This document shows positions 13,212 to 25,617 of a DNA stretch of 64,000 bases, in pieces. This DNA is from a bacterium (lineage in GTDB: Bacteria; Desulfobacterota; Binatia; HRBIN30; CADEER01). The stretch's first letter is position 1. Each line of letters starts with the position of its first letter. The notes beneath the pieces are model-generated. The model was not told the origin of the DNA. It did no database searches and saw nothing but the letters and a program-made list of their open reading frames with translations. Made by a program: the position numbers and the translations under genes. Location: positions 59,472-123,471 of the forward strand of contig JANNRA010000032.1 in assembly GCA_031401035.1 (NCBI GenBank), given 5' to 3'.

Positions 13212-13955
13212 CTAGCTCACCAGTCCCAGTCCGCCGTCGACGACGACGATCTCGCCGGTCATGTAGCGCGACTGGATGACGCCGAAGATCGTCTCGGCGA
13301 TGTCCTCGCCGGTCGCCGAGCGTCCGAGCGGGGCGTTCTGTGCGACGAGCGCGTGCAGCCCGGCCCAGTCCTGGGTCCACGGCGTCGCAACCAACCCCGG
13401 CGCCACGGCGTTGACGCGCACCGGGCCAGAGACCTTGGCGAGGAGCTGGGTGAGGTGGTTGATCGCGGCCTTCGAGACGGCGTACGGAATCGAACTGCCG
13501 GTCGGTCGCACGCCGGCGACCGACGTGACGTTGACGATGACGCCGGACGGACTTCGTTTCAGCGCCGGCATGGCGGCGCGGCAGAGGTACCAGGTCCCGA
13601 GCAGGTTGACGTCGAGAATGCGGCGGAAGACCTCGTCGGTGACGGCGTCGAGATCGGCATGCGGGATGAGCTGGGTCGTGCCGGCATTATTGACCAGGAT
13701 GTCGAGGCGGCCGAAGCGCGCCAGCGTCGTGCCAATCAGCGCCTGGCAGGCGGCCTCGTCGGCGACGCTGCCTTGTACGTAACAGGCGTTGGGGAGGGAG
13801 GTGGCGACGCGTTCGCCGGCCTCGACCGACGTCGAGGAGTTGATCACCAGCGCCGCGCCGGCGGCGGCGAGGCGCCGGGCGGTCGCCTCGCCGATGCCGC
13901 TGGAGGAGCCGGTGACGACGGCGACCTGGCCGGCGAGCGCGTCGGATGCCGTCAC
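13212..13955 (-). CDS. Short-chain dehydrogenase/reductase (SDR)
   Basis: VAVVTGSSSGIGEATARRLA (TGxxxGxG), NNAG, and the catalytic S...YAVSKAA motif. The GTG start overlaps the upstream stop (GTGA). Confidence 0.8.
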   Translation of the reverse strand: MTASDALAGQVAVVTGSSSGIGEATARRLAAAGAALVINSSTSVEAGERVATSLPNACYVQGSVADEAACQALIGTTLARFGRLDILVNNAGTTQLIPHADLDAVTDEVFRRILDVNLLGTWYLCRAAMPALKRSPSGVIVNVTSVAGVRPTGSSIPYAVSKAAINHLTQLLAKVSGPVRVNAVAPGLVATPWTQDWAGLHALVAQNAPLGRSATGEDIAETIFGVIQSRYMTGEIVVVDGGLGLVS

Positions 13956-15064
13956 TGGGCGGCGACCGGCTGGTCGTTGTTCGACGTCTTCTGCATGAAC
14001 TGCATGAGCAACTGGACGAGTTCCTGCGGCGGCGTCGTCTCGGGATCCTCGACCGAATCCTTGAGATGCTCGAACTGCAGCAGGTCGAGCTTGGCGTAGG
14101 CCTCGCGCACGCGCGGGGTGAGCAGGCCAAGGCGCTTCAGGTTGGGCACGATCTTCTGGAACATCATCTGCCGGAAGCCGCGCATGAACGGGGTCGTCTC
14201 CGACCACGCCGTCCACACCTTGGGATCCCAGCCGAGGTGTTCGAATACCGGCGTCGGGACGAGGCGCTCGCGCAGCAGGTGGGTGGCTTCGATGACGAAG
14301 TCCTCGCGCTCGCGCAGCTCCGTGGCGCTCATCTGGTTGGTGTACAGATCAGACAGCGACAGGACGCCGAAGGCGACGTGGCGGGACTCGTCCTGCATGA
14401 CGCGCGTGATGAGGTCCTGGATCAGCGGCTCGTCCATCATCTGCATGCGGGTGACGCCGAAGGCCGCCAGCGCCAGGCCCTCGACCATGATCTGCATGCC
14501 GAGGAAGGTGACGTCCCAGCGCGAGTCGCAGACGATGTCGTCGAGCAGCCGGTTCAGGCTCGGCACGCATTCGTACGAGAGGCCCAGCTTCTCGGTCAGG
14601 TAGCGATGGTAGACCTCGACGTGGCGCGCTTCATCCGCCACCTGGTTGGCGGCGTAAAACTTCGCCTCTTCCCACGGCACGCCCTGGACGATCTTCGCCG
14701 TCGCCACCAGCGCGCCCTGCTCGCCGTGCAGGAACTGCGACAACATGAAGGCGTTCATATTGAGCTGGAACTCGATGACCTGCTCGTCGCTCAGCGGCGT
14801 CGGCGGGTTGAGGAGCGAGTTCATCAGCGCCGGCATGCCGTTGGCCACGCGCTGCTTCACCATGCGTTCGATGTTGACGTCGATCGACCAGTCGAGGTCG
14901 TTGGCGTTCCACGTCTGGGTCTTACCCTTCTCGTAAAGGGCGAGCAGGTTCTGCTTCTCGAGCGCATACTTCCAATCGAAGACGGTATCGATGGTGGCGC
15001 GCACCGACTCGAAGGCCGGCCCGCCCTTCCGCAGCGGCAGGGGGTTGTGCTGGGTGTACTGCAT
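13952..15064 (-). CDS. Ferritin-like diiron-carboxylate oxygenase (AurF / acyl-ACP-desaturase-like)
   Basis: Two E...EXXH ligand pairs are present: ...HGEQGA...DEARHVEVYHRY and ...MVEGLA...QDESRHVAFG. The product is 370 aa. Confidence 0.65.
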   Translation of the reverse strand: MQYTQHNPLPLRKGGPAFESVRATIDTVFDWKYALEKQNLLALYEKGKTQTWNANDLDWSIDVNIERMVKQRVANGMPALMNSLLNPPTPLSDEQVIEFQLNMNAFMLSQFLHGEQGALVATAKIVQGVPWEEAKFYAANQVADEARHVEVYHRYLTEKLGLSYECVPSLNRLLDDIVCDSRWDVTFLGMQIMVEGLALAAFGVTRMQMMDEPLIQDLITRVMQDESRHVAFGVLSLSDLYTNQMSATELREREDFVIEATHLLRERLVPTPVFEHLGWDPKVWTAWSETTPFMRGFRQMMFQKIVPNLKRLGLLTPRVREAYAKLDLLQFEHLKDSVEDPETTPPQELVQLLMQFMQKTSNNDQPVAAQ

Positions 15065-17116: not shown

Positions 17117-17222
17117 TCGGTTGGGAGACTAAAGCGGACGCCTCCGTGCGTGTCCATGACGGGGCCGGCGCCAAGCGCTGTTGACCGATCCGACGCGCAA
17201 CTGTACAGACCAGTACGTACGT

Positions 17223-17936
17223 ATGGCGCGAGGGAGATACCAGAAGAGCGATATCAGCCGCGAGCGGATCCTCGAGTCCGCTATCGAGCTGTTCTCAGCG
17301 CGGGGCTATGCGGCGGCCGGCGTGGACCGCGTTGCCGAGCGTTCAGGTATCGCCAAGACGGCTATCTACTACCACTTTGGCAATAAAGAGGGGTTACTCG
17401 TCGCGGTGCTGGAGCGTGCCGCGACGCATTGGATCGAGGGTATCGAGCAGGCTGCCAGGCAGGGCGGCGAGCCACTCGAGCGACTCGACCGCGCCCTCGT
17501 CGGCATGCGCGCCATGCTCGAGGAGCGGCCCTGGATCCTCAAACTCTTCCAACTCCTGGCGCTCGAAGTCGCCGACCACAAGCCGGAGGTGCGCGCGACG
17601 CTGCAGGGGATCATTGGCAAGGCGCGCGACGCCATCGTCAACGGCATGCGCGACGCGCTTGGCGTCGCCGTGCCGGGGGCGGAGACGGTCGCGGGTCTGC
17701 TCCTGGCTCTGCTCGACGGCGTGTCCCTCGGCGCCCATATTACGCCGACGCTGCTGCCCTACGACGACGCCTTCCGCGAGATCCGGCGTCTGGTCGCCTT
17801 CATGATTGCGACGCGACTCAACCCCGAGTTGGCGGCGCTGTTCGACAAGCCCCCCGATCTGGTGCGCCTGCTGCCGGACGGGCGGCCCCCTACAGGAGAT
17901 CTGGACGATGACCGCATTGGCCAGTCTGACCGGTGA
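17223..17936 (+). CDS. TetR family transcriptional regulator
   Basis: HTH ILESAIELFSARGYAAAGVDRVAERSGIAKTAIYYHFGNKEGLL. It is divergent from the acyl-CoA dehydrogenase. The start was chosen at Met15 of the ORF. Confidence 0.8.
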   Translation: MARGRYQKSDISRERILESAIELFSARGYAAAGVDRVAERSGIAKTAIYYHFGNKEGLLVAVLERAATHWIEGIEQAARQGGEPLERLDRALVGMRAMLEERPWILKLFQLLALEVADHKPEVRATLQGIIGKARDAIVNGMRDALGVAVPGAETVAGLLLALLDGVSLGAHITPTLLPYDDAFREIRRLVAFMIATRLNPELAALFDKPPDLVRLLPDGRPPTGDLDDDRIGQSDR

Positions 17937-18170: not shown

Positions 18171-20699
18171 TCACGATCGAGGCGCGAAGAACGACTGCAT
18201 CTCGCTGAGAACCATATCGGTGTCGCCGATGACGCGGCGGGCTGGGGGCAGCGAGGCGAAGAAGACGCCGCCGTAGCGCTTGTGGACGATGCGGCTGTCG
18301 AGAATGACGACGCAACCGCGGTCGCTGCGGCTGCGGATCAGGCGTCCAAAGCCCTGCTGCAACTTGATCGCCGCCTGCGGCAGGGCGCGCTCGGCGAAGG
18401 GATTGCCGCCGCGTGCGGCAAGGGCTTCGACGCGCGCCTCCTCGAGCGGCTCGGTGGGGACGCGGAAGGGCAGGCGCGCAATGACGACGCAGCGCAGCGC
18501 ATCGCCGCGGACATCGACGCCCTCCCAGAAGCTGTCGACGGCGAAGAGCACGGACGCCGGGGTGGCGACAAAGCGCTGCAGGAGCACGGGGCGACTGACT
18601 TCGCCCTGGCGCAGTGGCAGGTAGCCGGCGTGGCGCAGGTCGTCGGCGAGTGCCGTCCAGGCGTGCGTCAGGGCGCTATAGGAGGTGAACAAGAGGAAGG
18701 TGCCGCCGCGTGTGACGTCGATGATGCGGCGGATGGCGGCGTGGCTGGCGGCGTCGTGACCGACAGCGGTCGGTTCAGGCAGGTCGGCCGGCACGGCGAG
18801 CAGAGCCTGGCGCGCGAAGTCGAAGGGCGACGCGACGCGTAGCGTCTCGACGCGCTCCGGCGGGTCGATGCGGTCGACGCCGATGCGCTGGTGCAGAAAG
18901 TCAAAGCGCCCCTCGACGGTCAGCGTCGCCGAGGTGAGCACCGTGGTGGCGAAGGGGGCGAAGAGGCCCTTGGCGAGCAACGGCCCGACGTCGATCGGCG
19001 CCTGGTGCAGCGACAGGCTGGGCCCGCTGCGGCCGCGTTCGCGGCGCTCGAGCCAGGCGCACTGCCGCGGATCCTCCTCCGTAAAGGCGAGGAGACTGGC
19101 GGCCGTGCCGCGCAGTCGAGCGGCGATGGCGCCGAGCTCGGTGGCGAGGTAGCGGATCTGCGGCGGCGCGTTCTCGGAGAGCAATTCGAGACGTTCGAGC
19201 ACGCCGCCGAGATCGGCCGCGAAACCGTCGAGCGCGGTCGCCAGGCGACCGCTGCGCTCCAGCACGACGCGCCAGAACGGGCCCTCGCGCAGCGCTTCGG
19301 TCACCCGGCGCTTCTCTTCGCGCTCGCCGGGGCGGCGGTCGGGCAGGGCCTCGAAGGCGACGCGCAGGCGGATGAAGTCCTCCTCGGCGTCGGTCGCGAG
19401 GACGCTACAGGCGGGCAGCAGGCGGCTGTCGATCCAATGCGCCGCACCGTGCGCCGCCGGGGCGTCGGCGGGATCGTCGATGGCGTCCAGCGCCAGCGCC
19501 AGCGCCGGCAGCAGTCCCTTGCCCGGATTGCGCCGGCTCTGCAGGCGGGCGAAGGCGCGCTCGATCATGCCCAGCCCCACCTGACTGCCGAAGTAGGCGG
19601 TGGCGACATCCTCGAGATGGTGCGCCTCGTCGATGATGGCGCGCGTGCTCGGCGGCAGGACGCCGTTCTGGCTGTAGTCGCCGACCTCCGCGCGCAGCGC
19701 CAGATCGGCCATCAACAGGTGGTGATTGACGACCAGCACGTCGGCGGCGGCGGCGGCGCGCCGGGCGGTGTAGAAGAAGCAACTGGAGTAGTGCGGGCAG
19801 CGCGCACGCAGGCAGTTGTCATTCTCCGATACCACGTGCTCCCACACCTCCGGGCGCGGGCGTACCGGCAGATCGGCGAGACTGCCGTCGCTGGTGCGGT
19901 GTGCCCAGTCGAGCACCTGGCGCAGCTCGCCGAGCAGCTGGTCATCGACCAACTGCGCCGGCTGCGCCGCCGCCTGCGCCGCCTTGCGCTTGCACAGGTA
20001 GTTGCCACGCCCCTTCACCAGCGCGACGCGCACCTCCAGGCCGGCGCGCTTGGTGAGCAGCGGCAGGTCCTTGGCGACCAACTGTTCCTGGAGATTGATG
20101 GTGTGGGTGGAGACGACGACGCGCTGGTGATTGGCGCGGCTCCAGAGGATTGCCGGCACCAGATAGGCGAGCGATTTGCCCGTGCCGGTGCCGGCCTCGA
20201 CGCTGAGCGCCATGTCGTCGTTGAAGGCGGCGGCGACGGCACCGAGCATGGCGAGCTGCTGCGGGCGGTGCTCATAGCCCTCCAGCGCGGCACCGACCCT
20301 CCCGCCTGGCTCGAGTAGAGCGGCCGCGGCCGTCGCATCGAGCGTCGTCGGGACGCGCTCGGCGTGCGCCTCGACGACCACGTAGACGTGCTCGACGGCA
20401 TTGTCGACGATATAGGCGCCGACGCCGCCGTTGCCGAGCGTCGAGGCGATCGCCAGATCGGCATCAGAGGGTGTCAGGGCGCCGCTGGGATGATTGTGGA
20501 TCACCACCTCGCCGGGGCGTGGTACCTGCATGATCGCCGGCGCGGCGTGACGGTTGCCACGCGCCAGGACGCGCACGCTGGTGACGAGGCGGTCCTCGAG
20601 TCCGCCGAGCACGAAGACCTCGTTGCCGCCGGCGTCGACGATGGCGGCGCGCAGCGCCGCCGCGGCCGCGTTGGTGAAATGCTCGGACACCATCGCCAT
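18171..20699 (-). CDS. DinG/XPD-family Fe-S ATP-dependent DNA helicase with an N-terminal RadC-like JAB/MPN domain
   Basis: N-terminus has VVIHNHPSGALTPSDADLAIASTLG...GAYIVD (RadC/JAMM H-x-H-P-S-G...S..D). Then come Walker A GTGTGKSLAYL, four Cys (CLRARCPHYSSCFFY), DEAH (IIDEAHHLED) and a C-terminal helicase domain (...QGFGRLIRSRSDRGCVVILDSR). Confidence 0.8.
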   Translation of the reverse strand: MAMVSEHFTNAAAAALRAAIVDAGGNEVFVLGGLEDRLVTSVRVLARGNRHAAPAIMQVPRPGEVVIHNHPSGALTPSDADLAIASTLGNGGVGAYIVDNAVEHVYVVVEAHAERVPTTLDATAAAALLEPGGRVGAALEGYEHRPQQLAMLGAVAAAFNDDMALSVEAGTGTGKSLAYLVPAILWSRANHQRVVVSTHTINLQEQLVAKDLPLLTKRAGLEVRVALVKGRGNYLCKRKAAQAAAQPAQLVDDQLLGELRQVLDWAHRTSDGSLADLPVRPRPEVWEHVVSENDNCLRARCPHYSSCFFYTARRAAAAADVLVVNHHLLMADLALRAEVGDYSQNGVLPPSTRAIIDEAHHLEDVATAYFGSQVGLGMIERAFARLQSRRNPGKGLLPALALALDAIDDPADAPAAHGAAHWIDSRLLPACSVLATDAEEDFIRLRVAFEALPDRRPGEREEKRRVTEALREGPFWRVVLERSGRLATALDGFAADLGGVLERLELLSENAPPQIRYLATELGAIAARLRGTAASLLAFTEEDPRQCAWLERRERGRSGPSLSLHQAPIDVGPLLAKGLFAPFATTVLTSATLTVEGRFDFLHQRIGVDRIDPPERVETLRVASPFDFARQALLAVPADLPEPTAVGHDAASHAAIRRIIDVTRGGTFLLFTSYSALTHAWTALADDLRHAGYLPLRQGEVSRPVLLQRFVATPASVLFAVDSFWEGVDVRGDALRCVVIARLPFRVPTEPLEEARVEALAARGGNPFAERALPQAAIKLQQGFGRLIRSRSDRGCVVILDSRIVHKRYGGVFFASLPPARRVIGDTDMVLSEMQSFFAPRS

Positions 20700-20761: not shown

Positions 20762-21631
20762 ATGGCCCCGACGACGACCACGCTCGGCCTCGTCCAGATG
20801 CGCTGCGGCACCGATGTCGCCGCCAATCTGGCCACCGCCCTGGCGCGCATCAAGGAAGCGGCGGCCGGCGGCGCCGAGATCGTCTGCCTGCAGGAACTCT
20901 TCCGTTCGCAGTACTTCTGTCAGGCGGAGGAGACGGCGACCTTCGATCTCGCTGAATCCATTCCGGGTCCCAGCACCGTGGCGATCGGCCGCGTCGCCAA
21001 GGCCTGCCGGGTCAGCGTCGTCGCGTCGCTGTTCGAGAAGCGCGCCGAAGGGGTGTTTCACAACACGGCCGTGCTGATTGACCCCGACGGCGCGATTTCC
21101 GGGCTGTATCGCAAGATGCACATCCCCGACGACCCCCTCTTCTACGAGAAGTACTACTTCACGCCCGGCGACATCGGCTTCAAGAGCTTTGCCACCGCCG
21201 GCGCCAGGGTCGGTGCACTGGTCTGCTGGGACCAATGGTTTCCGGAGGCCGCCCGCCTGACGGCCCTGTCCGGCGCCGAGATCCTCGTCTACCCGACTGC
21301 GATCGGCTGGCAGCCGCGCGAGAAGGCGGAGTTCGGTGCCGCCCAGCACGACGCCTGGCAGACCATTCAGCGCAGCCACGCCATCGCCAATGGCGTCTTC
21401 GTCGCCGCCGTCAACCGCGTCGGCATCGAGGGCGGTCTCGAGTTCTGGGGCGGTTCCTTCGTCGCCGACCCTTTCGGTCGGGTGCTGGCCCGCGCCAGCC
21501 ACGATCAGGAAGAGATCCTCATCGTTCCCTGCGACCGCCGCCTGATCGGCGAGACGCGCCGCAACTGGCCGTTTCTGCGCGACCGCCGCATCGACGCCTA
21601 CGACGGTCTCCTCAAGCGCTACCTCGACTGA
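20762..21631 (+). CDS. aguB: N-carbamoylputrescine amidase (carbon-nitrogen hydrolase family)
   Basis: Nitrilase-superfamily catalytic residues (E..K..C: ...VCWDQWFPE...). It is adjacent to the agmatine deiminase gene. Confidence 0.8.
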   Translation: MAPTTTTLGLVQMRCGTDVAANLATALARIKEAAAGGAEIVCLQELFRSQYFCQAEETATFDLAESIPGPSTVAIGRVAKACRVSVVASLFEKRAEGVFHNTAVLIDPDGAISGLYRKMHIPDDPLFYEKYYFTPGDIGFKSFATAGARVGALVCWDQWFPEAARLTALSGAEILVYPTAIGWQPREKAEFGAAQHDAWQTIQRSHAIANGVFVAAVNRVGIEGGLEFWGGSFVADPFGRVLARASHDQEEILIVPCDRRLIGETRRNWPFLRDRRIDAYDGLLKRYLD

Positions 21632-21729
21632 CTCCCCCCTCCCGCCGCAGGGGGGGCAGGAGGACCGGAGCGTAATCCGTGATGCCCCAGGCCCCGCGTT
21701 CAAAGAGTCCCGCCGCCCTCGGCTTCCGC

Positions 21730-22788
21730 ATGCCGGCCGAGTGGGAACCGCACGCCGCGACGTGGCTGTCTTGGCCGCACAAGGAGTCGTCCTGGCCGGG
21801 CATGATCGAGCGCATCCCGCGCTACTGGGTGGAAATGACGCGAGCCCTGACCCCGGGTGAGCGGGTCGAGATCCTCGTCAACGCCGCGGCGCCGGCGGCG
21901 CATGTGCGCGCCGCTCTGGCGGCCGGCGGCGTGCCACTCGATCACGTCGGCCTGCACGAGGTGCCGACCGATGACGCCTGGATGCGCGATCACGGCCCGA
22001 CGTTCGTGACGCGCGCCGACGGCTACGCGCTGATCGACTGGCGCTACAATGCCTGGGGCGGCAAGTACCCCCCCTGGGAGCAGGACGACCGCGTTCCCGC
22101 GGCACTGGCGGCGCGCCTGGCGGCGGCGCGCTTCGAACCAGGACTGGTGCTCGAAGGGGGTTCGATCGACGTCGACGGCGTCGGCACGCTGCTCACCACC
22201 GAACAGTGTCTCCTCAACCCCAACCGCAATCCGGGCCTGGATCGCGCCGCTATCGAGCGCGCGCTTTGCGACTTCCTCGGCGTGCGCCGGGTCCTCTGGC
22301 TGGGCGACGGCATCGTCGGCGACGACACCGACGGTCACGTCGACGACATCACGCGCTTTGTCGCCCCAGCGACCGTCGTCACCGTCATCGAAGACGATCC
22401 CCGCGACGCCAATCACGGCCCGCTGCTCGACAACCTACGCCGCCTGCACGCTATGCGCGACGCCGCCGAGCGCCCGCTGCGCGTCGTCACGCTGCCGATG
22501 CCGAAGCCGATCGAGCACGAAGGGCAGCGACTGCCGGCCTCCTACGCGAACTTCTACATCGCCAACGCCGCCGTGCTGGTACCAGTGTTCGGTTGCGCAA
22601 ATGATGCGCGCGCGGTGGCGACCCTCGCGGAGCTGTTCCCGACGCGTCGCATCGTCGCCATCGATGCGACCGATCTGGTGTGGGGGCTCGGTGCCTTTCA
22701 CTGTGTCACCCAACAGCAACCTGCGGCGCCGGGCCCGGCCGCGGTGATGGCATCAACGGAGGACGCGGCGCCGTCGCGCCGCGTCTGA
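21730..22788 (+). CDS. aguA: Agmatine deiminase
   Basis: MPAEWEPHAATWLSWPH, ...DDAWMRDHGPTF..., and GDDTDGHVDD...GAFHCVTQQ (catalytic Cys) match the porphyromonas-type peptidyl-arginine deiminase/agmatine deiminase family. Confidence 0.85.
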   Translation: MPAEWEPHAATWLSWPHKESSWPGMIERIPRYWVEMTRALTPGERVEILVNAAAPAAHVRAALAAGGVPLDHVGLHEVPTDDAWMRDHGPTFVTRADGYALIDWRYNAWGGKYPPWEQDDRVPAALAARLAAARFEPGLVLEGGSIDVDGVGTLLTTEQCLLNPNRNPGLDRAAIERALCDFLGVRRVLWLGDGIVGDDTDGHVDDITRFVAPATVVTVIEDDPRDANHGPLLDNLRRLHAMRDAAERPLRVVTLPMPKPIEHEGQRLPASYANFYIANAAVLVPVFGCANDARAVATLAELFPTRRIVAIDATDLVWGLGAFHCVTQQQPAAPGPAAVMASTEDAAPSRRV

Positions 22789-22876: not shown

Positions 22877-23557
22877 ATGGGACGCATCGCAATACTCGGC
22901 GGTACAGGACCTGAGGGCATCGGGCTCGGGCTGCGCTTCGCCCTGGCGGGTGAGGAGGTGACGATCGGGTCGCGCCAGGCCGAACGGGCGCAGGAGGCTG
23001 CGCGCGACATGCAGGCGAAACTGGCCGCGGTGGGATGCCGCACCCCGGTGCACGGTGCCGACAACGCGGGCGCGATCGGCGGCGCCGACATTGTCACTGT
23101 CGCGTTTCCCTATGCCGGCGTCGCCGATCTGCTGCCTGCGCTGGCGGCGCAACTGGCGGGCAAGGTAGTGCTCGACGTCATCAATCCGCTCACCCGCATC
23201 AACAAGGTGTTCGGCTTGGCGCCGGTGGCACAGGGCTCCGCCGCCGAAGCGATTCAACAGTTATTGCCGGAGAGCTTCGTGGTGGCCGGCTTCAAGAACG
23301 AGAGCGCCGAGGAACTGGTCGAGATCGACCATCCGGTCGAGGGCGACGTGATCATCTGCGGCGATCATGGCGAGGCAAAGGGCCGTATCGTCGACCTGGT
23401 GCGGCGCATCCCCAACTACCGCGCCGTCGATGCCGGCGCGCTCCTCAACGCGCGCTTCACCGAGGGCATCACCGCCATGCTCCTGAACATCAACCGGCGC
23501 CACAAGGCCATCACCTCGGTGCGCATCCTCGGGCTCGACGGCGGCGGCGCGCACTAG
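22877..23557 (+). CDS. NADPH-dependent F420 reductase (Fno/NpdG family)
   Basis: MGRIAILGGTGPEGIGLGLRFALAGEEVTIGSRQAERAQEAA... is 226 aa and closely resembles the NpdG/Fno N-terminal Rossmann fold. A GGAGGA RBS lies 8 nt upstream. Confidence 0.75.
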   Translation: MGRIAILGGTGPEGIGLGLRFALAGEEVTIGSRQAERAQEAARDMQAKLAAVGCRTPVHGADNAGAIGGADIVTVAFPYAGVADLLPALAAQLAGKVVLDVINPLTRINKVFGLAPVAQGSAAEAIQQLLPESFVVAGFKNESAEELVEIDHPVEGDVIICGDHGEAKGRIVDLVRRIPNYRAVDAGALLNARFTEGITAMLLNINRRHKAITSVRILGLDGGGAH

Positions 23558-23613
23558 AGGGCGGCGGCCGGCCCCTGCTGGCGGCCGCCCGCCCGCCGGT
23601 CCGTCGGGGCGAT

Positions 23614-25617
23614 ATGACCACACTGACGCCGCGCCTTGAGCGCGGGCGGCTGCAACTCGGGGCCGGCGAGGTGCGCATCGACAATGCCACCTGCGCGCTC
23701 GTTGTCGAGCGCGCCTGGCGGCGGTTGACGTGGCAGGCTGACGCTCTCGTGCCGACAGGCGACGGGTGGTCGGCGCTGTGGGCCGAGACGGGGCTACGCC
23801 TCGACCTCACGGCGCAGGAACGCGACGGCGGCCTCGTGCTCAGCGGCAGCCTCGAGCATTGTGGCGACGTGCCGCTGCGCCTGCTCAGCGCCGCGCCCCT
23901 GGCAGTCGTCGGCGCGGCGGGTGTGCGCGTCGGCGCGGACGCGGCGCAGTGGTCGGTGTACCGCAACGGGTATCAGTCTTGGAGCGGCACGCGTGCCTAC
24001 GGCGTCAAAGAGGCCGATGCGGATCCGTGGTGGGAGTTTCTGCGCGACGTGCATACCGACCCGGTGCACCGCGCCGGCGGCAGCGCTGGCGCCTTCCGCT
24101 CCGATCTGGTGACGGCGATCGTCGACCGCGCCAGCGGTGCGGCGCTGGCGATCGGCTTTCTCGACACCGCCCGCTTCGTCGTCGCCGTCGAGGTGGACGC
24201 ACCGGGCGGACAGTTCGCGCGCCTGGCGGCGGTCGTCGACGGCGACCGCGTGACAATCCGTCCCGGACAGCGTCTGGCCCTGCCGGCGCTCTGGCTCGCG
24301 GCCGGCTGCGATGGTTGGTCGCTGCTCGCGCAGTGGGCGAGTGCCTGCGGCGCGGCGATGCAGGCGCGCGTGCCCGCGCAGACGCCGATCGGCTGGTGCT
24401 CTTGGTACTACTACTTCACCCGCGTCAGCGAGGTCCACGTCCTGGATGCCGTCGATTCATTGAGCCGCCTGCGCTCGCGCATCCGCTGCGATTACGTGCA
24501 GGTCGACGACGGCTATCAGTCCGCCATCGGCGATTGGCTGCAGCCGAACGCGAAGTTTCCGCACGGCATGCGGTGGCTGGCCCAGCGCATCGAAGCGGCC
24601 GGCTTCGCCGCCGGTATCTGGTTGGCGCCCTTCCTCGCGCGCCCCGAGTCGCGCCTCTTTCAGTCGCGTCCGGAATGGTTCGTCCGGACGCCGACAGGTG
24701 CTCTGCGCTGGGGCTGCTGGAACCCCGCCTGGGGCTTCGGGCGACCGGCGTACGCGCTCGACACGACGCGCGACGACGTGCTCGCCTGGTTGCGCGACCT
24801 CGCCCGCACGCTGGTGCACCAGTGGGGGTTTCGCATTCTCAAACTCGACTTCCTGTATGCCGCGGCGCTGCCGGGCGTCCGCGCCGACCCTGCGGCGACG
24901 CGCGCCGAAGCGCTGCGCCGCGGTCTCGAGGCCATCCGCGAAGGCGCGGGGCCAGACGCGTTCCTGCTCGGCTGCGGGTGCCCGCTTGGACCGGCCATCG
25001 GGATCGTCGACGGCATGCGCATCGGCGCCGACGTGGCGCCGTTCTGGGAGAATGCGGTCAGTCGCGGCCCGAATCGCGGTCGGCACGGCGTCGCGACGAG
25101 GCATGCGCTGCGCAACACCTTGACGCGCGCGTTCATGCACCGCCGGCTCTGGCTCAACGATCCGGACTGCCTCATGGTGCGCGCCGCCGACACCCGCCTG
25201 CAGCCGGCCGAGGTCCAGTCGCTGGCCACCGTCATCGCCGTGACCGACGGAATGTTGGTACTCAGCGACCGCCTCGAGGCGCTTCCGCCCGAACGGCTGG
25301 CGTGGGTCGAACGGATGCTGCCGCTGCTCGGCGGTGCGGCTCGGGTCGACGACCTCTTCGAGCGCGACCTGCCGGAGATCCTGCGCGCCCGCTACGATGA
25401 TGGTGAGGCGGTGGCGGTGTTCAACTTCAGCGCCCGCGTGGCTGATCGACGGGTTCCCGTCGACGCGGATGCGTCGACGGTCGAGGAACTATGGAGCGGC
25501 GCGTTGCTGCCGGTGATCGGCGGCGTCGTGCACCTGGCAGGTGTTCCGGCGCACGGCTGTCGCCTCCTGTGGGTGGCGCGGCCGGGGTCCGTTGATGGTG
25601 CGGCAGCGCCAGCGTAG
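23614..25617 (+). CDS. Alpha-galactosidase (GH36, melibiase family)
   Basis: ...GWCSWYYYF...VQVDDGYQ...ILKLDFLYAA...LLGCGCPLGP...RLWLNDPDC matches the GH36 catalytic core. Start is at MTTLTPRL; the long upstream ORF extension was rejected. Confidence 0.75.
   Translation: MTTLTPRLERGRLQLGAGEVRIDNATCALVVERAWRRLTWQADALVPTGDGWSALWAETGLRLDLTAQERDGGLVLSGSLEHCGDVPLRLLSAAPLAVVGAAGVRVGADAAQWSVYRNGYQSWSGTRAYGVKEADADPWWEFLRDVHTDPVHRAGGSAGAFRSDLVTAIVDRASGAALAIGFLDTARFVVAVEVDAPGGQFARLAAVVDGDRVTIRPGQRLALPALWLAAGCDGWSLLAQWASACGAAMQARVPAQTPIGWCSWYYYFTRVSEVHVLDAVDSLSRLRSRIRCDYVQVDDGYQSAIGDWLQPNAKFPHGMRWLAQRIEAAGFAAGIWLAPFLARPESRLFQSRPEWFVRTPTGALRWGCWNPAWGFGRPAYALDTTRDDVLAWLRDLARTLVHQWGFRILKLDFLYAAALPGVRADPAATRAEALRRGLEAIREGAGPDAFLLGCGCPLGPAIGIVDGMRIGADVAPFWENAVSRGPNRGRHGVATRHALRNTLTRAFMHRRLWLNDPDCLMVRAADTRLQPAEVQSLATVIAVTDGMLVLSDRLEALPPERLAWVERMLPLLGGAARVDDLFERDLPEILRARYDDGEAVAVFNFSARVADRRVPVDADASTVEELWSGALLPVIGGVVHLAGVPAHGCRLLWVARPGSVDGAAAPA

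Follow-up and report, generated by a model that had tools for sequence, protein, structure and literature searches.

A RadC-type JAB domain at the head of a DinG-like Fe-S helicase in an uncultured bacterial lineage

One continuous gene for a JAB-headed helicase

The gene considered here lies on the minus strand of a 64-kb stretch of bacterial DNA (contig JANNRA010000032.1 of assembly GCA_031401035.1; the whole stretch is hereafter called the window) and encodes a DinG-like helicase that is preceded, in the same polypeptide, by a RadC-type JAB domain, an arrangement known as RadC-like DinG. The open reading frame (ORF) at 18171–20699 spans 842 amino acids (aa) with zero internal stops, and the plus-strand frame of the same interval is interrupted by stops; the identical NCBI protein (P0001) begins two codons later, at 840 aa. 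The third-position GC content (GC3) is 0.87 over the first 133 codons and 0.89 over the remaining ones, and such near-equal values in the N-terminal domain and the helicase are consistent with one undivided gene in a genome of 69% GC. The original prediction, made from the letters of the window, had recognized in this uninterrupted, coding-like ORF both a RadC-type head and a full DinG-like helicase with its Fe-S insertion. All the motifs that it quoted are present in the translation, and the absence of internal stops together with the uniform codon usage bears out the continuity, with the strand now corrected to minus. The architecture is confirmed: a single uninterrupted gene joins a RadC-type JAB head to a complete Fe-S helicase of the DinG type. 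Its features are as follows, residue counts referring to 73 aligned sequences, namely the window protein and 72 full-length representatives of at most 50% mutual identity.

18171–20699, minus strand: whole gene, RadC-like DinG; 842 aa plus stop codon (18171–18173), ATG start
20355–20699, minus strand: N-terminal RadC-type JAB/MPN domain, residues 1–115
20619–20621, minus strand: codon of E27, predicted general-base Glu of the JAMM site; in 73/73 representatives, and aligned to the invariant Glu of canonical RadC
20457–20498, minus strand: JAMM zinc motif H68-N-H70-P-S-G-A-L-T-P-S78-D-A-D81 (HxHx7Sx2D); H68, H70, S78 and D81 in 73/73
20280–20354, minus strand: variable linker with two short helices (from secondary structure), residues 116–140; mean identity 0.26
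18174–20279, minus strand: DinG/XPD-type superfamily 2 (SF2) helicase body, residues 141–842, comprising helicase domain 1 (HD1) with the Fe-S insertion, Arch, and helicase domain 2 (HD2)
20172–20192, minus strand: Walker A (motif I), G170-T-G-T-G-K-S176; K175 in 73/73
19779–19994, minus strand: Fe-S cluster insertion, Cys236/296/301/307 (C-x59-C-x4-C-x5-C); four Cys invariant in alignment A1 (counts over the 73 representatives are given below)
19620–19631, minus strand: DEAH box (motif II), D357-E-A-H360; D357 and E358 in 73/73
19065–19514, minus strand: Arch domain, about residues 396–545; long helices (from secondary structure), the least conserved part, mean identity 0.20
18333–18356, minus strand: motif VI, Q782-G-F-G-R-L-I-R789; R786 and R789 in 73/73

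With a JAB domain (1–115) set ahead of a helicase (141–842) in a single polypeptide, the protein has the make-up of the RadC-like DinG subgroup and shows no architectural difference from it: the order of RadC-type JAB, linker, motor domain 1 with a four-Cys Fe-S insertion, Arch, and motor domain 2 is the same, as are the conserved E, two H, and D of the putative metal center in the head (PMC11981726, PMC3239186). Membership is shown directly by the identity of its N-terminal domain to two reference proteins of the 2025 review that named the subgroup, namely A0A0M4DKS9 of Desulfuromonas soudanensis (Table S1 of the review; 50% identity, E=7e-39) and A0A2C9CFG9 of Kuenenia (45%, E=1e-37).

In the head, the stretch VVIHNHPSGALTPSDAD reads H68-N-H70-P-S-G-x4-S78-x2-D81 and has E27 upstream, so that the JAMM/MPN+ signature E...HxHx7Sx2D is found on a JAB/MPN fold. 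The Pfam matches that the original prediction had led one to expect were obtained in part: Helicase_C_2 is strong (1e-42) and DEAD is above threshold, DEAD_2 stays under its cutoff (19.8 vs 21), and RadC (PF04002) scores 22.1 bits on the full protein, exactly its gathering cutoff of 22.1, over 26 residues only (65–90). The isolated N-terminal domain reaches 25.6 bits with the same model (E=1.2e-5); Prok-JAB gives 14.9 bits to the head, and the NCBIfam RadC models give 23 bits to the protein vs a cutoff of 180. Because the Pfam RadC score was borderline, the homology was tested further by profiles. The profile of the N-terminal domain family matched a profile of canonical RadC, built from 25 JAB domains from genome loci, with an hhalign probability of 98.4% (E=5.6e-15) over 85 columns, from the Glu-bearing strand up to and including the helix that follows the zinc motif; against the Protein Data Bank (PDB), the family profile retrieved the RadC homolog 2qlc at E=2e-6 and, weakly, AfJAMM. 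By these profile comparisons, the homology of the head to the JAB domain of canonical RadC extends to the domain as a whole.

Canonical RadC/YicR (helix-hairpin-helix [HhH] plus JAB, ~220–250 aa; PDB 2qlc) shares the HNHPSG-x3-PS-x2-D signature and the upstream E-x-F with the window protein. However, its JAB domain is C-terminal, after the helix-hairpin-helix, whereas that of the window protein is N-terminal and the helicase supplies DNA engagement. The JAB subfamily of the window has also diverged from canonical RadC in that the D-H after the last strand of RadC becomes D/N-N. In the “hydrophobic-D box” GAYIVD, which had been singled out as a RadC feature, D99 is variable (D in 52 and N in 19 of 73), the conserved residue being N100 (68/73).

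The body shows the hallmarks of the DinG/XPD family: SF2 motifs I, II (DEAH), and VI, an Arch domain, and, within HD1, an insertion with four Cys. Its best NCBIfam match is the YoaA equivalog NF053712, with 588 bits in two stretches, below the cutoff of 680; the Bacillus-type DinG model NF005981 (467 bits, cutoff 789) and the E. coli-type DinG model NF008729 (426 bits, cutoff 598) are likewise below theirs. Residues 135–837 align to positions 249–928 of the 931-position ExoDinG-type model PRK08074, and since the helicase core matches this model from position 249 on, the JAB domain is placed where the exonuclease sits. A full-length structural model has a predicted local distance difference test score (pLDDT) of 79.7, low only around the Fe-S loop (residues 292–311), as is to be expected where the cluster is not modeled. 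The closest solved structure found by Foldseek is E. coli DinG (6fws; template modeling [TM] score 0.76, normalized to the target; 25% identity), followed by S. aureus ExoDinG and then by XPD and CasDinG, an order with which the sequence-level PDB search agrees. Unlike the window protein, which is below both equivalog cutoffs, E. coli DinG and YoaA are stand-alone helicases without a JAB head; the last three cysteines of E. coli DinG presumably have the same C-x4-C-x5-C spacing. By homology, 5'–3' polarity, a bound [4Fe-4S] cluster, and, in the head, zinc binding are to be expected.

Across the 73 representatives, the Fe-S cysteines are kept 70 times (C236), 59 times (C296), and 73 times each (C301 and C307). 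In the C296 column (window 19812–19814), Thr or Ser stands in 14 of the 73, and C236 is missing in 3 of them; these exceptions could be alignment shifts or real three-Cys cluster variants, which are mentioned for other DinG subgroups (PMC11981726).

A published family that spans several phyla

The original prediction had left open whether the fusion is conserved across a clade or local. It spans a large clade and recurs in hundreds of independent assemblies from several phyla. A full-length search returned 6919 matches, of which the best 120 are ~810–940 aa long and 60–100% identical to the query at ~97–100% coverage, many of them with precomputed PF04002 and helicase domains. With the N-terminal domain alone as a single-sequence query, an exhaustive phmmer search of 1.84 billion cluster representatives gave only 583 clusters, 416 of them at E≤1e-10, which marks this JAB subfamily as divergent. 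The full-length matches are 810–980 aa long with the domain at the extreme N-terminus, and the best 150 of the 583 are either full-length fusions or short fragments. In species-representative genomes, at least 13 loci match the whole N-terminal domain, and 12 of the 13 listed are intact fusions in which the JAMM motif is followed by a Walker A motif ~100 residues downstream. The lineages concerned include Geobacteraceae, Deltaproteobacteria, Fusobacteria (35% GC), Treponema/Spirochaeta, and Gemmatimonadaceae (68% GC), and the window protein is 44% identical, end to end over 834 aa, to a Geobacteraceae fusion.

The putative catalytic residues are retained throughout this breadth. E27, H68, H70, S78, and D81 are intact in 73/73 representatives and in 12/12 intact genome loci, the one from a Fusobacteria metagenome-assembled genome (MAG) included, and K175, D357, E358, R786, and R789 of the motor are likewise kept in 73/73. 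Mean identity is 0.49 in the JAB core and 0.44–0.57 in the motor domains, as against 0.26 in the linker and 0.20 in the Arch, and the distance from JAMM to Walker A is 102 residues in 42 of 62 sequences.

Stand-alone versions of this JAB subfamily were also considered and rejected, the short proteins made up of the N-terminal domain only being fragments. Two of them, which lie on long contigs, were examined: P0287 is on a contig where several neighboring genes are split as if by frameshifts, and P0279 (199 aa), a decayed remnant, retains a truncated Walker A region. In the latter (L007:5001–5600 and L008:1318–1917), an intact JAB domain leads into a Walker A region that breaks into unrelated sequence, followed by a P-type ATPase gene; as it is found in two independent Joint Genome Institute (JGI) samples, the truncation of the gene is apparently genuine rather than produced by assembly. 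A further match of the N-terminal domain (tblastn, 45% identity) lies in a complete-chromosome MAG (OZ244870.1, L017:6001–6345), where the frame in which the match starts runs for 55 aa only and was found to contain neither a JAMM nor a Walker A motif; the explanation is a pseudogene or else a frameshift from long-read sequencing.

This family is not new. The fusion of RadC-type JAB domains to DinG/Rad3 helicases was described in 2011, when a nuclease role was proposed for the JAB domain on the grounds that related DinGs carry a 3'–5' exonuclease at the same position, an instance of non-homologous domain displacement (Iyer et al., PMC3239186), and the argument was repeated in 2017 (Iyer et al., PMC5512222). 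The name RadC-like DinG and an AlphaFold3 model came with section 3.8 of the 2025 review, which also argued for a different role of the YoaA-like C-terminal helix in this subgroup, its hosts being without HolC, the partner of YoaA (PMC11981726). Since the fusion was described in 2011 and named in 2025, the suggestion in the original prediction of a distinct repair or defense architecture fails as a claim of novelty, and the gene is a further member of a known, named, and biochemically uncharacterized family. The discovery value is small, the architecture having been published in 2011 and NCBI already containing identical or near-identical proteins; what remains is a handle on what RadC-type JAB domains do. 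The lineage of the window copy, uncultured and of 69% GC, differs from the orders sampled through KEGG in the review (Desulfuromonadales, Brocadiales, and others; PMC11981726), and the closest named relatives of the copy, among the best 120 of the 6919 matches, are labeled Binatia, Dormibacteraeota, or “bacterium”. The source names of close homologs (P0004, P0028, P0032, P0088, and P0119) conflict at the phylum level, with labels of Dormibacteraeota at 77% identity, Binatia at 61–70%, and Deltaproteobacteria at 60%, which makes the placement of the window's lineage tentative, and some of these MAG labels may be unreliable.

What a helicase-tethered JAB domain might do

We read the gene as a chromosomal, stand-alone RadC-like DinG whose product would act by coupling a helicase to a hydrolase, and put the probability of this reading at about 0.8. 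The body would be an ATP-driven [4Fe-4S] motor of the DinG/XPD type, expected by homology to translocate 5'–3' on single-stranded DNA (ssDNA). The head would offer a complete single-zinc hydrolase site, with H68, H70, and D81 as predicted ligands, E27 as the predicted general base, and S78, and would be joined to the motor through a variable linker of ~25 residues. Because the JAB domain occupies the position that the DnaQ-type exonuclease holds in ExoDinG, the enzyme is most likely a coupled machine, in which the motor may follow ssDNA where replication or repair intermediates are damaged or stalled, and hand a DNA-borne substrate to the tethered hydrolase. ExoDinG of Bacillus and Staphylococcus (PDB 8zef, 9ii8) likewise has an extra N-terminal catalytic domain ahead of a DinG helicase. 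However, that domain is an RNase H-fold DEDDh exonuclease of the DnaQ type whose 3'–5' activity has been demonstrated, whereas the window head has a JAB/deaminase-like fold with a predicted single-zinc HxH...D site and an activity that is predicted only.

Several points weigh against this picture. The Pfam and NCBIfam RadC matches of the head are brief and borderline; the scores of the body, all under the DinG and YoaA equivalog cutoffs, mean that function is not transferable from either helicase; and experimental work on RadC-like DinG or on a catalytic activity of RadC was not found in the literature. The radC mutants of E. coli and pneumococcus have no DNA-damage phenotype (PMC11981726, PMC3239186), which leaves a repair role for RadC-type JAB domains unproven. 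As to the substrate, Iyer et al. argue that a groove to take up the ubiquitin tail is missing from RadC-type JAB domains and that all their fusion partners bind DNA (PMC3239186, PMC5512222), a combination that favors a nucleic acid.

The chemistry of the head is a separate question, on which we tentatively place amide-type (C-N) bond hydrolysis first, although with less than even confidence. On the amide option, a protein, peptide, or adduct attached to the translocated strand or blocking it would be trimmed off, and the fused enzyme would be analogous to the pairing of a helicase with a DNA-dependent metalloprotease. We lean slightly toward amide cleavage over a nuclease in part because the whole residue set of the JAMM isopeptidases is invariant, the accompanying serine included, both in the 73 RadC-like DinG representatives and in canonical RadC. 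The other part lies in the chemistry of the relatives: to our knowledge, amide-bond cleavage is the reaction of all the catalytically characterized structural relatives of JAB, apart from more distant ones that are base deaminases, and in the JAMM peptidases and deaminases, which belong to this fold class, sites with a single zinc and a Glu base act on carbon centers, not on phosphorus. Compared with the JAMM/MPN+ isopeptidases themselves (Rpn11, CSN5, AMSH, PfJAMM1, Cap3, BilC), the window head is a minimal core of ~115 residues, no ubiquitin-like, E1, or E2 partner genes lie nearby, and RadC-type domains are reported to be without the ubiquitin-tail groove (PMC5512222).

The chief competitor, which we consider somewhat less likely than amide cleavage, is that the JAB domain is a nuclease that has replaced the DnaQ-like 3'–5' exonuclease of ExoDinG and degrades or trims the strand unwound by the helicase. 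The alignment of the helicase core to the ExoDinG-type model from position 249, with JAB in the place of the exonuclease, speaks for it, as do the rank of S. aureus ExoDinG as second-closest solved structure and the lack of ubiquitin-like, E1, or E2 genes adjoining any of 15 loci compared. We know of no nuclease with a JAB fold, though, and the invariance of the full peptidase-type residue set, S78 included, tells against it. The published inference from domain displacement (PMC3239186, PMC5512222) and the DNA-binding nature of all the other partners of RadC JAB domains (HhH, ArdC-N, primase; PMC3239186) favor the nuclease, but reports of such an activity since the 2011 prediction were not found in the literature.

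A more specific version of the amide option, which we regard as unlikely and place slightly behind the nuclease, is a helicase-coupled DNA-dependent peptidase that would clear covalent DNA–protein crosslinks or tight roadblocks ahead of the 5'–3' motor. If true, the protein would do in one bacterial chain what eukaryotes achieve by pairing FANCJ, an Fe-S helicase, with SPRTN, a DNA-dependent metalloprotease, and the near-universal, enigmatic RadC family would gain its first biochemical function. The family is a good system for deciding between nuclease and peptidase, since its JAB domain is welded to a helicase of known substrate (ssDNA at forks and gaps), its five catalytic residues are kept in 73/73 representatives, and it is encoded by a stand-alone, cleanly deletable gene; the present copy, from an uncultured organism, gives no special leverage on this question.

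Less probable by a clear step is a catalytically silent JAB domain, serving as a DNA-binding, protein-docking, or autoinhibitory module on a DinG/YoaA-like helicase. The conservation of all five catalytic residues in 73/73 representatives makes such a scaffold role unlikely, as scaffold MPN domains typically lose theirs; the residues are also kept in the 12/12 intact loci, and the head is as strongly conserved as the ATPase core. What can be said for a silent domain is that fusobacterial versions with lost zinc ligands were noted by Iyer et al. (PMC3239186), although the Fusobacteria MAG recovered here has the residues, and that radC mutants show no phenotype (PMC11981726, PMC3239186).

A defense architecture had been contemplated in the original prediction; a helicase acting against phages or plasmids in the manner of CasDinG or of another defense system that contains DinG, with JAB as the effector, is far less probable still. 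The best PADLOC match of the protein is indeed the “typeIV_DinG / CAS-IV-A associated” model (437 bits), but it is limited to the generic helicase body (138–828), and the type IV CRISPR helicase model TIGR03117 gives 91 vs a cutoff of 400. The association of CasDinG with csf/cas genes and a CRISPR array is not seen in the 64-kb window: no cas or csf genes were found, no CRISPR-like direct-repeat array in the 64 kb, no tRNA near the gene, no integrase or other sign of a mobile element around it, and no PADLOC hit among the eight neighboring proteins, the neighbors being metabolic. In five lineages, the gene stands among unrelated housekeeping genes without a conserved partner, and conservation of the family seems to be vertical, with synteny kept locally (the window and L001; the Treponema loci). 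Its four-Cys Fe-S domain is moreover intact, whereas CasDinG has pseudo-FeS domains (PMC11981726). The context and the recurrence of the fusion effectively exclude both this role and an assembly or annotation artifact, in which a sequencing error would have joined adjacent radC and dinG genes: the short N-terminal-domain-only proteins in databases that might suggest this negligible possibility are contig-end fragments, a protein from a contig with genes split as if by frameshifts (P0287), and a decayed remnant (P0279), and the same continuous architecture is seen in hundreds of independent assemblies of several phyla, with codon usage uniform across the junction.

Surroundings of the gene

The gene is monocistronic and stands alone among metabolic genes, its nearest neighbors being the following.

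17181–17936, plus strand: TetR gene, downstream of the helicase and convergent with it
On the downstream side of the helicase, with TetR: acyl-CoA dehydrogenase gene
20762–21631, plus strand: CN-hydrolase gene (PF00795, 2.9e-63), upstream of the helicase, divergent from it and 62 nucleotides (nt) away
21679–22788, plus strand: agmatine deiminase gene (PAD_porph, 4.9e-127), after the CN-hydrolase

Farther away are genes for a luciferase-like monooxygenase, a short-chain dehydrogenase/reductase (SDR), NadA, MatE, and cytochrome c. The CN-hydrolase and agmatine deiminase pair (20762–22788, plus strand) looks like a pathway from agmatine through N-carbamoylputrescine to putrescine, and its arrangement, divergent from the helicase, is kept in GCA_019637795.1 (L001), a 75%-identical relative that shares synteny with the window. 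The 62-nt divergent intergenic region held no conserved operator or palindrome, of the SOS type or other, when compared with L001 as the single relative.

More distant homologs adjoin succinate dehydrogenase and deoxyhypusine synthase genes or an Mla operon. An all-against-all BLAST of the flanking ORFs of the 15 loci found no partner gene conserved across lineages; flanking synteny was within lineages only, between the window and L001 and among three Treponema loci, and the one cross-lineage cluster, a short-chain dehydrogenase, was taken as chance. As for a separate radC, the 64-kb window held only chance matches to a second RadC-type motif; canonical RadC is also present in Binatia and Geobacter MAGs (L059, L070), so that at the level of the lineage the fusion does not obviously replace it.

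In the three spirochaete loci (L010, L013, and L016, from Treponema/Treponemataceae), five or six same-strand genes are conserved within ~6 kb upstream of the fusion; in L013, the nearest two encode a FlaA flagellar sheath protein and, immediately upstream of the fusion, a RelA_SpoT small alarmone synthetase fused to tetratricopeptide repeats (TPR). This block probably reflects lineage synteny and not a functional link.

Two other ORFs of the window may be mentioned. An 860-aa ORF at 23035–25617 (plus strand) has a weak, partial Melibiase match (5e-10, residues 495–606); as it overlaps a 226-aa F420_oxidored ORF (22877–23557), its true start is probably further downstream, and its homolog in L001 is called at 672 aa. 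On the minus strand, a 370-aa ORF at 13952–15064 has a sub-threshold DUF455 match (25.9 vs 34.3 bits), and at a comparable position in L001 (8623–9609) a gene of the AurF family of diiron oxygenases adjoins a TetR gene.

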